Position numbers and translations under genes: made by a program. A stretch of DNA of 64,000 nucleotides from a virus. This document shows positions 2,854 to 4,987 of this stretch, one piece after another (the stretch's first letter is position 1; each line of letters begins with the position of its first letter). The DNA lies in IMG/VR virus record IMGVR_UViG_3300025598_000020; one strand, given 5' to 3'. The notes under the pieces were generated by a model. The model saw only the letters and a program-made list of their open reading frames with translations, had not been told where the DNA came from and ran no database searches.

Positions 2854-2929
2854 TGGCAGGGGAGATGAGATTCGAACTCATGATACTGATTTCAAAGACC
2901 AGTGCCTTAGGCCTCTAGGCGACACCCCA
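2854..2929 (-). tRNA. tRNA-Gln(TTG)
   Basis: Loop CT-TTG-AA; weak 1-72 pair; G73; CCA end. Confidence 0.9.
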
Positions 2930-3012
2930 ACATACTCAAATACACTAAAAAATATCTAATGCGTTTGAGTATGGCCACTCCTTGCGGAATGGCCAAAAAA
3001 GAATACACTTAA

Positions 3013-3025
3013 TTTTTAAAGAACA
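3013..3025 (-). promoter_or_regulatory. rrn-type boxA antitermination element
   Basis: Second TGTTCTTTAAAAA, at the head of the tRNA array. Confidence 0.7.
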
Positions 3026-3032
3026 AGGTTGA

Positions 3033-3061
3033 ATTCTAACAGACACGATGGTCTTTGTCAA
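3033..3061 (-). promoter_or_regulatory. sigma70-type promoter at the head of the tRNA array
   Basis: TTGACA-N17-TAGAAT. Confidence 0.75.
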
Positions 3062-3087
3062 CCGTGTGTTGTTTTTACGCAACACCA

Positions 3088-3122
3088 AATAAAAAAACCT
3101 CAGAACTTTCGTTGTGAGGTTT
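3088..3122 (-). terminator. Intrinsic terminator (attenuator hairpin)
   Basis: AAACCTCA-CAACGAAAGTTC-TGAGGTTT running into a U-tract. Confidence 0.85.
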
Positions 3123-3149
3123 AGTGAAATTTAATTAGATTTTATTCTG

Positions 3150-3254
3150 TTATGTTCCACTAACCCCGTTTACATGCGCCCATGGTTGATTATCGCTACC
3201 AATAAATGGTGTGCGATACTCACATGTTAACAATGATTTGGACGTGAAAAACAA
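3150..3254 (-). CDS. 34-aa putative attenuator leader peptide MFFTSKSLLTCEYRTPFIGSDNQPWAHVNGVSGT (not in ORF track)
   Basis: AAGGAG at 3266-3261, TTG start 6 nt later, TAA at 3152-3150; last codons are complementary to the terminator 5' arm. Confidence 0.75.
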   Translation of the reverse strand: MFFTSKSLLTCEYRTPFIGSDNQPWAHVNGVSGT

Positions 3255-3288
3255 AATAAACTCCTTAATATACTATTATATATGCAAC

Positions 3289-3807
3289 TTAATTTTTAGA
3301 AATTGGTTTTTTCCAATTAATCTTTCTTTTCTTCAATGGTTCTTCTGGATTTCTAAAGCCAGAAAATACTTCCCATAATCTTTCTTTATGAACAAACTTA
3401 GTTAATAGACCACTTTCCATACCGTGTGCTTCTATTTCCCAAGGATGGTCCCAATAATCCATATTATCGGAATCAATCTTTAAATCATGCCATTTACTTA
3501 ATGTTTCATTTGTATGACCATAAGCAAATTGCTTAATATGCACCATTTCATGTGCAATTGTTTCTAATATATTTGGTACTCCAATATCTGGATTAACTTC
3601 TATTAGAAACTCTCTAGGCATATTCCTAGAATTATAACCTTCAACATATGCATAACCAAATACTTGCATGTCTTTTTTGAATTTGATTACGATTGAAGTA
3701 TAATCCTGCATCTGCTTAGTTAATAAACTATCAGCATAAAACTTAGCGGCCCTATGAACATAGGGGGTAAAGTTTTTATCGGGACTTCCAACAATCTTAA
3801 TAGACAT
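3289..3807 (-). CDS. Putative zinc metallopeptidase (HExxH)
   Basis: IAHEMVHIKQ and YWDHPWEIEA motifs. Confidence 0.7.
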   Translation of the reverse strand: MSIKIVGSPDKNFTPYVHRAAKFYADSLLTKQMQDYTSIVIKFKKDMQVFGYAYVEGYNSRNMPREFLIEVNPDIGVPNILETIAHEMVHIKQFAYGHTNETLSKWHDLKIDSDNMDYWDHPWEIEAHGMESGLLTKFVHKERLWEVFSGFRNPEEPLKKRKINWKKPISKN

Positions 3808-4404: not shown

Positions 4405-4536
4405 TTATTCCATCAAAACATAATCTTCTTTACTCACACCACATTCGGGGCAAGTAACAGAATCAGGTAAACTTAGATAATCTGCTTCAGACAAGGTGTG
4501 TCCACAAACGACACAAACATAAACACGTTCACCCAT
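4405..4536 (-). CDS. Rubredoxin, 43 aa (not in ORF track)
   Basis: MGERVYVCVVCGH...LPDSVTCPECGVSKEDY: two CxxCG motifs; starts immediately after the rubrerythrin stop. Confidence 0.88.
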   Translation of the reverse strand: MGERVYVCVVCGHTLSEADYLSLPDSVTCPECGVSKEDYVLME

Positions 4537-4537
4537 T

Positions 4538-4987
4538 TTAGATACCTCCTAATACTTTAATATATGCTTCTGCATGGCGTTTTTCAACTTTAGCCAATGC
4601 GGCAAAACGTTTTTCTGCCTTAGCCAAGATAGCGGCAAATTGTGCGGCATGTTCTTTAGACTCAGCAATCTGCTCTTGGATTTCTTTCTGTGCTTCGGTC
4701 TTACCCTCTGCAACTGCAATGGCTTCAAACTGAGGATACATTGTAGTAAACTCATATGTTTCACCATCAATAGCAAGTTGTAAGCATTCCTTAGTGGTTC
4801 GCTTACCGACCAACAATTCCAAATGACCCCATGCATGTTTGATTTCTTGATCGGCAGTTTCTTCAAAATGTTTTGCAACATCTTCAAAGCCTTCTGCACG
4901 AGCCAACTTGGCAAAGTAACGATATTTAATATGTGCAATTGACTCACCGGCCAATGCACTTTCTAGGTTTTTCAAAGTAACTGACAT
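4538..4987 (-). CDS. Rubrerythrin-family di-iron protein
   Basis: NLESALAGES, EIKHA, GETYEFTTMY and EKRHA motifs. Confidence 0.9.
   Translation of the reverse strand: MSVTLKNLESALAGESIAHIKYRYFAKLARAEGFEDVAKHFEETADQEIKHAWGHLELLVGKRTTKECLQLAIDGETYEFTTMYPQFEAIAVAEGKTEAQKEIQEQIAESKEHAAQFAAILAKAEKRFAALAKVEKRHAEAYIKVLGGI

Follow-up and report, generated by a model that had tools for sequence, protein, structure and literature searches.

Control of transfer RNA (tRNA) genes is thought to act at their promoters, in response to growth rate and through the stringent response, and at the level of processing. The operons known to use leader-peptide attenuation are those of amino-acid biosynthesis and a few others, and we know of no translation-coupled feedback loop on tRNA genes in cells or viruses. 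Among the described attenuators, trpL, hisL, pheL and leuL of Escherichia coli and Salmonella combine a short translated leader with four RNA segments that can pair as 1:2, 2:3 and 3:4, with the stop codon lying next to segment 2. The same layout of segments is found in a leader element ahead of a tRNA array in the IMG/VR virus record IMGVR_UViG_3300025598_000020. The stretch analyzed (64,000 nucleotides) is referred to as the window, and all coordinates of the leader element lie on its minus strand (Table 1).

The element belongs to a conserved module that consists of a -10 element, an open reading frame (ORF) of 31-44 codons, a central hairpin, two alternative pairing arms, an intrinsic terminator, a promoter, a boxA-like site and tRNA-Gln. 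On the basis of its architecture and composition, a conserved, putatively translation-coupled terminator switch at the head of a phage tRNA array is regarded as real. The favored reading, with a probability of roughly 0.6, is that this switch belongs to the ribosome-mediated transcription attenuators of the trpL/hisL type, that its leader contains nearly every amino acid once or twice and that its read-through would add phage tRNA transcription when charged tRNAs are short. An attenuator of this general kind had been proposed in an earlier note made from the letters of the window, which omitted segment 1 (the 1:2 pairing) and the conserved hairpin inside the ORF.

Distribution of the element

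Relatives of the element were collected in several ways. The neighboring gene for a 172-residue protein recruited 80 viral contigs at 50-99% identity, and further relatives came from pattern searches (one in nucleotides and one with a fully degenerate peptide), from a protein profile search and from a covariance model, giving a comparison set of approximately 100 uncultured relatives that are not independent samples. The earlier note had proposed a search upstream of the tRNA arrays of related phages, and ORFs with high amino-acid diversity and co-varying stems precede the tRNA arrays of these relatives. In all 45 unique upstream regions from loci with enough sequence, the small ORF and its terminator immediately precede tRNA-Gln(UUG), the gene that heads an array of 15-18 tRNAs. 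The sequence upstream of the ORF varies among relatives, indicating that the element belongs to the tRNA array and not to the neighboring gene.

The leader peptide itself is rare in existing collections. No PHROGs family was found with it, and a profile search of 1.84 billion proteins returned only five further members (P0001-P0004 and the divergent P0008). The same search also returned P0005, a Kazal-like repeat protein of 264 residues that has a 9-10 residue motif in common with the leader core; this likeness was judged to be due to chance. The degenerate peptide pattern had no match in 185,579 prokaryote genomes, so that no cellular counterpart was found, and a single-protein scan with the neighbor gene of the divergent relative L129 matched only the contig of L129 itself. 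Neither the region nor the peptide has a relative among 50,697 phage isolate records searched with blastn and tblastn, and that collection contains no close isolate.

The tRNA gene behind the element is not always tRNA-Gln. In L216 (minus strand, upstream of a promoter/boxA pattern match at about 3483), a 31-codon leader containing all 20 amino acids stands before a promoter, a boxA and tRNA-Glu.

Signs of translation

The earlier note had read AAGGAG and a TTG start as the opening of a 34-codon ORF at 3254-3150, and this description stands, with a 6-nucleotide spacer and a terminal TAA. Across the relatives, the frame is open in 41 of 41 unique variants and encodes 31-44 residues. Every one of these variants has one of two kinds of start. 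In the Shine-Dalgarno type, a GGAG-type site lies 6-8 nucleotides ahead of TTG, GTG or ATG. In the second type, an ATG lies 6-7 nucleotides past a TATAAT that has a good -35 element at 17-nucleotide spacing, which is the signature of a leaderless message. Moreover, insertions and deletions in the aligned ORFs come in multiples of three, changes in the core codons are almost all synonymous, and the other five frames of the same DNA contain 1-4 stops. The stop codon of the leader follows arm A (segment 2) by 2 nucleotides in the window and lies at most about 8 nucleotides from the inner end of this arm in all tabulated variants, with the divergent L129 placing it 18 nucleotides past that end. 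We infer from these features that the leader ORF is translated.

These observations also bear on the idea that the element is a non-coding RNA, such as a riboswitch, a T-box-like tRNA sensor or a small RNA, in which the ORF is incidental. Strong nucleotide conservation, a highly structured transcript and the presence of a -10 element and a terminator of its own would all suit such an RNA. Nevertheless, the start switches between Shine-Dalgarno-led and leaderless forms while the frame is kept, the insertions and deletions come in threes, and the stops are confined to the other frames. In addition, searches at E values up to 10 gave no match to any Rfam family, the T-box family RF00230 included, and the UGG of arm A sits inside a helix and not in a bulge. 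A non-coding element is considered highly improbable.

Alternative RNA structures

The earlier note had described a 13-base-pair antiterminator between 3167-3155 and 3129-3116 that overlaps the 5' arm of the terminator. Folding bears this out: when the 3' arm of the terminator is withheld, the two segments form 13 base pairs at -14.5 kcal/mol, and this pairing and the terminator hairpin have 7 nucleotides in common. The hairpin itself spans 3122-3095, with the U-run after it, and is revealed by folding; a simple terminator consensus scan omits it because of an internal C/C mismatch. With the 3' arm again withheld, the helix between arm A and arm B (segments 2 and 3) is found in every variant, with 12-20 base pairs and an overlap of 7-14 nucleotides with the 5' arm of the terminator.

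The complementarity of these arms is kept although their sequences are not. The arms are wholly different between lineages (for example L082/L091, L048, L092 and L117), and at least four sequence types of the terminator stem occur among the relatives, each of which is matched by arm A. When cognate arms 2 and 3 of 14 sequence types were compared in fixed windows, their summed energy was -232.9 kcal/mol versus -187.8 +/- 8.7 kcal/mol for permuted partners, and none of 100,000 permutations was as low; a version of this test with variable arm lengths was confounded and was replaced by the fixed windows. A covariance-model alignment, which is fitted to the structure and hence biased in its favor, has 80.5% of the cells of the 2:3 helix paired versus 44-55% with a slid partner, and it contains double changes at 7 of the 13 pairs; none of 500 shuffles reached the observed values. 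On a plain MAFFT alignment, RNAalifold recovers the central hairpin only, with the arms out of register, and the arms were studied by per-sequence folds, permutation tests and the covariance model. Arm A tolerates free variation in the residues that it encodes but keeps its pairing, which indicates that the RNA is the conserved part there.

The pairing of segments 1 and 2 was found in the same material. In folds of a transcript that stops short of arm B, the partner of arm A is the 5' end of the ORF (about 3254-3235), and the central hairpin is enclosed between the two; the divergent leaders also have this pairing. Arms 1 and 2 co-vary as well (cognate sum -293.5 versus -260.8 +/- 10.7 for permuted partners, P = 0.0013). 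Folding of the whole transcript (about 3268 to the U-run) gives -49 kcal/mol (z = -4.8), and its ground state contains the 1:2 pairing together with the terminator. The window and every relative, even those whose leaders are unrelated in sequence, have all three pairings (1:2, 2:3 and 3:4), and the layout is the complete scheme of trpL. In the minimum-energy fold of the full length (3088-3268, minus strand), the Shine-Dalgarno region is paired with the A-rich loop that separates arm A from arm B, and on this model terminated transcripts may not admit new ribosomes.

A conventional small protein gene, its 3' end and terminator structured by chance and its peptide functional in its own right (for example close to tRNA metabolism or against a host defence), would also show the good start signals, the frame open in all variants and the nearly exclusive synonymous changes of the core. 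Many small genes exist in phage genomes, and the 26-residue Stp peptide of T4 is a precedent. However, such a gene has no need of an arm A with two alternative, co-varying partners (the 5' end of the ORF and the terminator arm), and in the leaders the C-terminal residues change freely under a preserved pairing. Across the wider family it is the completeness of the composition, and not the peptide sequence, that is conserved, and the absence of a PHROGs family and the very few members among known proteins also speak against an established protein. This explanation is regarded as quite unlikely.

In the main family, 14 codons (residues 12-25 of the window peptide) are almost invariant in nucleotides, with the flanking protein only about 51% identical. 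Among 50 matches to the degenerate peptide pattern, 46 are identical in nucleotides and the other four differ at synonymous third positions only. This core forms the central hairpin, in which 94% of the cells pair and two double changes occur (G-C to A-U and A-U to G-C); a shuffle control for this hairpin was not significant, owing to the scarcity of variation. In the core hairpin, the partners of most third codon positions are first or second positions in other codons, and the frozen sequence can be ascribed to coding and pairing acting together. The changes seen in the hairpin are G-C to G-U, A-U to G-C (in L127) and G-C to A-U (in L129); the last of these turns Arg into His, and an Arg codon appears two codons upstream. 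The divergent leaders have a hairpin of different sequence at the same place. By analogy with the hairpin that synchronizes polymerase and ribosome in classical attenuators, we infer that the central hairpin is a candidate pause hairpin for RNA polymerase.

The invariance of the core raises the question of what signal the attenuator reads. It could be a genuine attenuator whose signal is something other than tRNA supply: an arrest peptide, with or without a small molecule, a phage or host protein or a ligand that binds the central hairpin, or a read-out of ribosome speed or availability. The 14-codon core is conserved in both peptide and nucleotides beyond what a rule of composition needs, the central hairpin is kept, and a single codon per amino acid makes a weak sensor of starvation. 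On the other hand, the peptides and hairpins of L141, L204 and L207 are unrelated in sequence and yet the architecture and the completeness persist, which fits neither a specific arrest peptide nor one ligand. The invariance within the main family is, moreover, largely explained by the double duty of coding and pairing, the few changes being wobble or compensatory and almost all synonymous. A signal other than tRNA supply is thus held to be unlikely.

Amino-acid composition of the leader

The leader of the window contains all 20 amino acids. The earlier note had pointed to 19 kinds within residues 6-28, to a stretch of 18 residues with 17 kinds, and to the use of several different codons each for Ser, Leu, Thr and Gly, all of which are present. 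For a random 23-mer drawn from the composition of the long ORFs of the phage, the probability of at least 19 kinds is 8e-6, a calculation that the earlier note had suggested. In the six frames of the 64-kilobase window (approximately 45,700 windows of 23 residues), only that of the leader reaches 19 kinds, and about 0.4 are expected by chance. The window sequence alone is not significant after multiple testing and could be luck; therefore, the weight rests on replication in relatives.

Such replication was found among the close variants. All 20 kinds are present in 22 of 33 unique variants and 19 kinds in a further 9. The null probability is 1e-4 to 1e-3, and for a random 34-38-mer the chance is 1e-4 to 5e-4. 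Amino acids lost at one place tend to be found at another. Where His is missing after Trp, it occurs near the N-terminus in four of eight variants; Cys is found at no fewer than 4 different places; Ala likewise reappears elsewhere when lost at one place. In L006, Glu and Tyr are gone from the core and present elsewhere, and in L129 the same holds for Arg, Phe and Ile, all three of which were changed in the core. Five types with a different core contain 20 kinds in 39 residues, 20 in 36, 19 in 32, 18 in 37 and 17 in 39 (Fisher P = 8e-7).

A further test was blind to the leader: viral contigs were scanned for the promoter and boxA pattern alone, and the upstream sequence was inspected wherever a tRNA followed. 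It yielded six more leaders with the same three-state architecture and 18-20 kinds in 31-41 residues (Fisher P = 7e-10), three of which have no similarity to the window peptide. The peptides of L141, L204 and L207 are unrelated and their architecture is the same. The property is also specific to the reading frame: the same DNA has a mean of 19.5 kinds in the ORF frame and of 14.8-16.5 in the five others. From these comparisons, we regard amino-acid completeness as a selected property of the family, the peptide sequence not being conserved across the wider family.

The terminator could in principle serve as a boundary only, shielding promoter P2 and the tRNA array from upstream transcription, with the amino-acid diversity being a by-product or chance. 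The conserved P2 that follows at once, the terminated form as ground state of the transcript and the non-significant single-window statistic are all in line with such a boundary. A plain stop, however, needs neither a conserved translated ORF nor a co-varying competitor helix that overlaps the 5' arm by 7-14 nucleotides, and the completeness replicates in leaders found blind and is confined to the ORF frame. A mere boundary is considered very unlikely.

Proposed mechanism

In the proposed attenuator, transcription would start at P1 or, in the window, possibly at the promoter at 3856-3828. The polymerase would transcribe segment 1 and the central hairpin and probably pause there, and a ribosome initiating at 3254 would melt the central hairpin and trail the polymerase. 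With smooth decoding, the ribosome would reach the stop codon and cover segment 2 as segments 3 and 4 emerge; the terminator would then form and transcription would end at about 3091. With a stall at any codon up to about 25, segment 1 would be held or separated and segment 2 left free to pair with segment 3, so that no terminator forms and the polymerase continues through P2 and boxA into the tRNA array. A shortage of any of many aminoacyl-tRNAs would in this way lead to extra phage tRNA transcription on top of that from P2.

The earlier note had taken failed initiation, like a stall, to allow read-through. This part needs correction: segments 1 and 2 are predicted to pair in the absence of a ribosome, and therefore failed initiation should give termination as the default, as in trpL. 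Its claim that a stall at almost any codon would be sensed stands in part. The near-complete set of amino acids is a trait of the family, and the set that can be securely sensed comprises 16-19 kinds and not 19-20. If a stalled ribosome is taken to cover about 12 nucleotides beyond the A-site codon, stalls in roughly the last eight codons should mask arm A.

Several points weigh against this mechanism. The codons at which a stall leaves the critical part of arm A free number 23-29 and cover only 16-19 kinds, with His, Val and often Ala or Trp at the border, as the earlier note had foreseen for stalls at His27 and Val28; and 17 kinds in 25 residues has a P of only 0.015. With one codon per amino acid, the leader would be less sensitive than classical leaders with their codon runs, and codons read by the 18 tRNAs of the window are no more frequent in it than genome-wide (64% versus 66%). 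The P values given for composition assume independent and identically distributed draws from the phage composition and the lineages share ancestry, so that they are indications and not exact values. With regard to transcription, P1 of the window is without a good -35 element, and the strong, conserved P2 sits between the terminator and the tRNAs; read-through can therefore only add to the output of P2, perhaps by little. In the leaderless subgroup, segments 1 and 2 pair weakly. Finally, the variant of L015 and L016 (leader at about 3015-3107 in L015) has a replaced core with only 15-17 kinds of amino acids; it has no clear start signal, its antiterminator and terminator are intact, and it may be a decaying copy.

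A broader role can be suggested more tentatively, and is thought possible rather than probable. The leader could serve as a general audit of decoding capacity, with each kind of amino acid represented in a single test message, in which the loss of almost any one charged tRNA, by starvation or by a host anticodon nuclease, would open the terminator and the phage would raise its own full set of tRNAs on demand. If the attenuator works as proposed, a classic mechanism would be put to a new use, with a translated leader sampling almost the full set of amino acids to gate a tRNA array, and phage tRNAs would gain a regulatory logic by which more are made when decoding falters. It would also provide a link to host defences that cut tRNAs and to phage tRNAs as counter-measures, and synthetic biology would gain a small, naturally occurring sensor for decoding stress in general.

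Genomic context of the element

The features of the element and of its surroundings are listed in Table 1. The phage is T4-like: its clamp-loader gene (8001-7069) is about 60% identical to the counterparts in T4-like cyanomyoviruses, and DNA of the window turns up in freshwater and lake metagenomes.

Table 1. Positions of the leader element and of adjacent features in the window
Feature	Position	Strand	Description
Promoter, perfect 12/12 sigma-70-type	3856-3828	-	Inside the end of the dCMP deaminase gene
172-residue protein gene	3289-3807	-	HExxH motif; adjoins the leader
P1 -10 element TATAAT	3275-3280	-	Leader's own promoter; aligned in all variants; predicted transcript start at about 3269-3268
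Shine-Dalgarno AAGGAG	3261-3266	-	6-nucleotide spacer, then TTG start at 3254
Leader ORF	3150-3254	-	34 sense codons and TAA (3152-3150); all 20 amino acids
Segment 1	3235-3254	-	5' part of the ORF, about codons 1-7; partner of segment 2 without a ribosome
Central hairpin	3188-3221	-	Inside the ORF, codons 12-23; RNAalifold
Segment 2 (arm A)	3155-3167	-	Last ORF codons
Segment 3 (arm B)	3116-3129	-	Pairs with segment 2 (antiterminator) or, by its 3' half, with segment 4
Intrinsic terminator (3:4)	3088-3122	-	Stem, GAAA loop, then U7 run; -11.8 kcal/mol
18-base-pair palindrome	3067-3084	-	Between terminator and P2 -35; conserved in most relatives, absent in L129
Promoter P2	3033-3061	-	TTGACA, 17 nucleotides, TAGAAT, TG before -10; 11/12; conserved in all relatives
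boxA-like site	3013-3025	-	After P2; conserved in relatives
tRNA-Gln(UUG)	2854-2929	-	First of 16 tRNA genes; array runs to 150

The promoter at 3856-3828 probably drives the gene for the 172-residue protein and, in the window phage, the leader; as the -35 element of P1 is poor in the window, transcription of the leader may also come from there. The separate promoter past the terminator that the earlier note had marked at 3033-3061 corresponds to P2 and scores 11/12, and the palindrome ahead of it may bind a regulator of P2. The site at 3025-3013 is one that we liken to the boxA of rrn operons. It reads TGTTCTTTAACAA in L125, which like L129 is closer still to rrn boxA than the window, and a boxA-like site is also found after P2 of L129, L020 and L074. 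By analogy, this suggests rrn-style antitermination of the tRNA array.

At least 16 tRNAs had been claimed downstream, and 16 were found at 2929-150. Within the array, between tRNA-Trp and tRNA-Gly, lies a gene for an RNase H-like protein (PF04308; 231-722, minus strand). Phages of the window type have about 70 extra nucleotides between boxA and tRNA-Gln, which contain a G+C-rich hairpin (2973-2994, minus strand) and a second, A/U-rich hairpin (2931-2972, minus strand), and the distance from the U-run to tRNA-Gln is 168 nucleotides in the window versus 91-130 in most relatives. In public metatranscriptomes, six runs share a few words with the stretch; contigs of four of them cover tRNA-Gln (2850-2933) and stray pieces and are uninformative on the leader.

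The genes near the leader encode dCMP deaminase, a rubrerythrin and a rubredoxin-like protein, and Hsp20. At 4405-4987 (minus strand), the rubrerythrin gene is followed by a separate gene for the rubredoxin-like protein of 43 residues, forming a split rubrerythrin with tRNA-Met and tRNA-Arg on its flanks. The 172-residue protein has more than 300 relatives among viral contigs; it matches no Pfam family, its PHROGs matches are of unknown function, and a relative in one cyanophage record is annotated as a WLM protease domain protein.

Comparison with known systems

Full-text searches of the published literature found no description of leader-peptide control of tRNA genes. T-box riboswitches resemble the phage element in that a terminator and antiterminator are tied to tRNA status and precede genes of the translation apparatus. 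T-box RNAs, however, bind uncharged tRNA directly and need no ORF, whereas the phage element has a conserved ORF. In mycobacteria, leaderless short ORFs with poly-cysteine tracts at transcript 5' ends act as attenuators, adjusting downstream expression through ribosome stalling (bioRxiv 10.1101/834739). They are the nearest analogue of the phage subgroup with an ATG at the transcript start; they differ in having runs of a single amino acid and in lying in bacterial operons, and the abstract describes no terminator switch of this kind (bioRxiv 10.1101/834739).

Other systems share single aspects of the element. The rrn operons likewise have tandem promoters before stable-RNA genes and a boxA-like site after the second promoter, and the phage element differs from them in the translated leader and terminator placed between the two promoters. 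In arrest peptides such as TnaC, SecM and SpeFL, the sequence is kept for the exit tunnel; the phage core is invariant in the main family and unrelated in L141, L204 and L207.

The greatest likeness is to the leader-peptide attenuators of amino-acid operons, whose structural hallmarks (an ORF with a start signal, a terminator, and the 2:3 and 1:2 pairings) are all found in the phage element, and whose repeated regulatory codons are not. As in the trpL type, the terminator is intrinsic and the G-rich end of the peptide is imposed by the stem. The multivalent attenuators of ilvGMEDA (Ile, Leu and Val) and thr (Thr and Ile) also respond to several amino acids through one leader with mixed codons, as would be the case here; these leaders use two or three amino acids in repeated codons, whereas the phage element has 16-20, mostly in single copy. 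Compared with the trpL type, the phage leader has no runs of single codons and contains nearly all amino acids once or twice (17-20 kinds in 31-44 codons), has an extra conserved hairpin in the ORF between segments 1 and 2, and is separated by a strong promoter from the genes that it would control. Moreover, these genes encode tRNAs and not biosynthetic enzymes, and the element resides in a phage.

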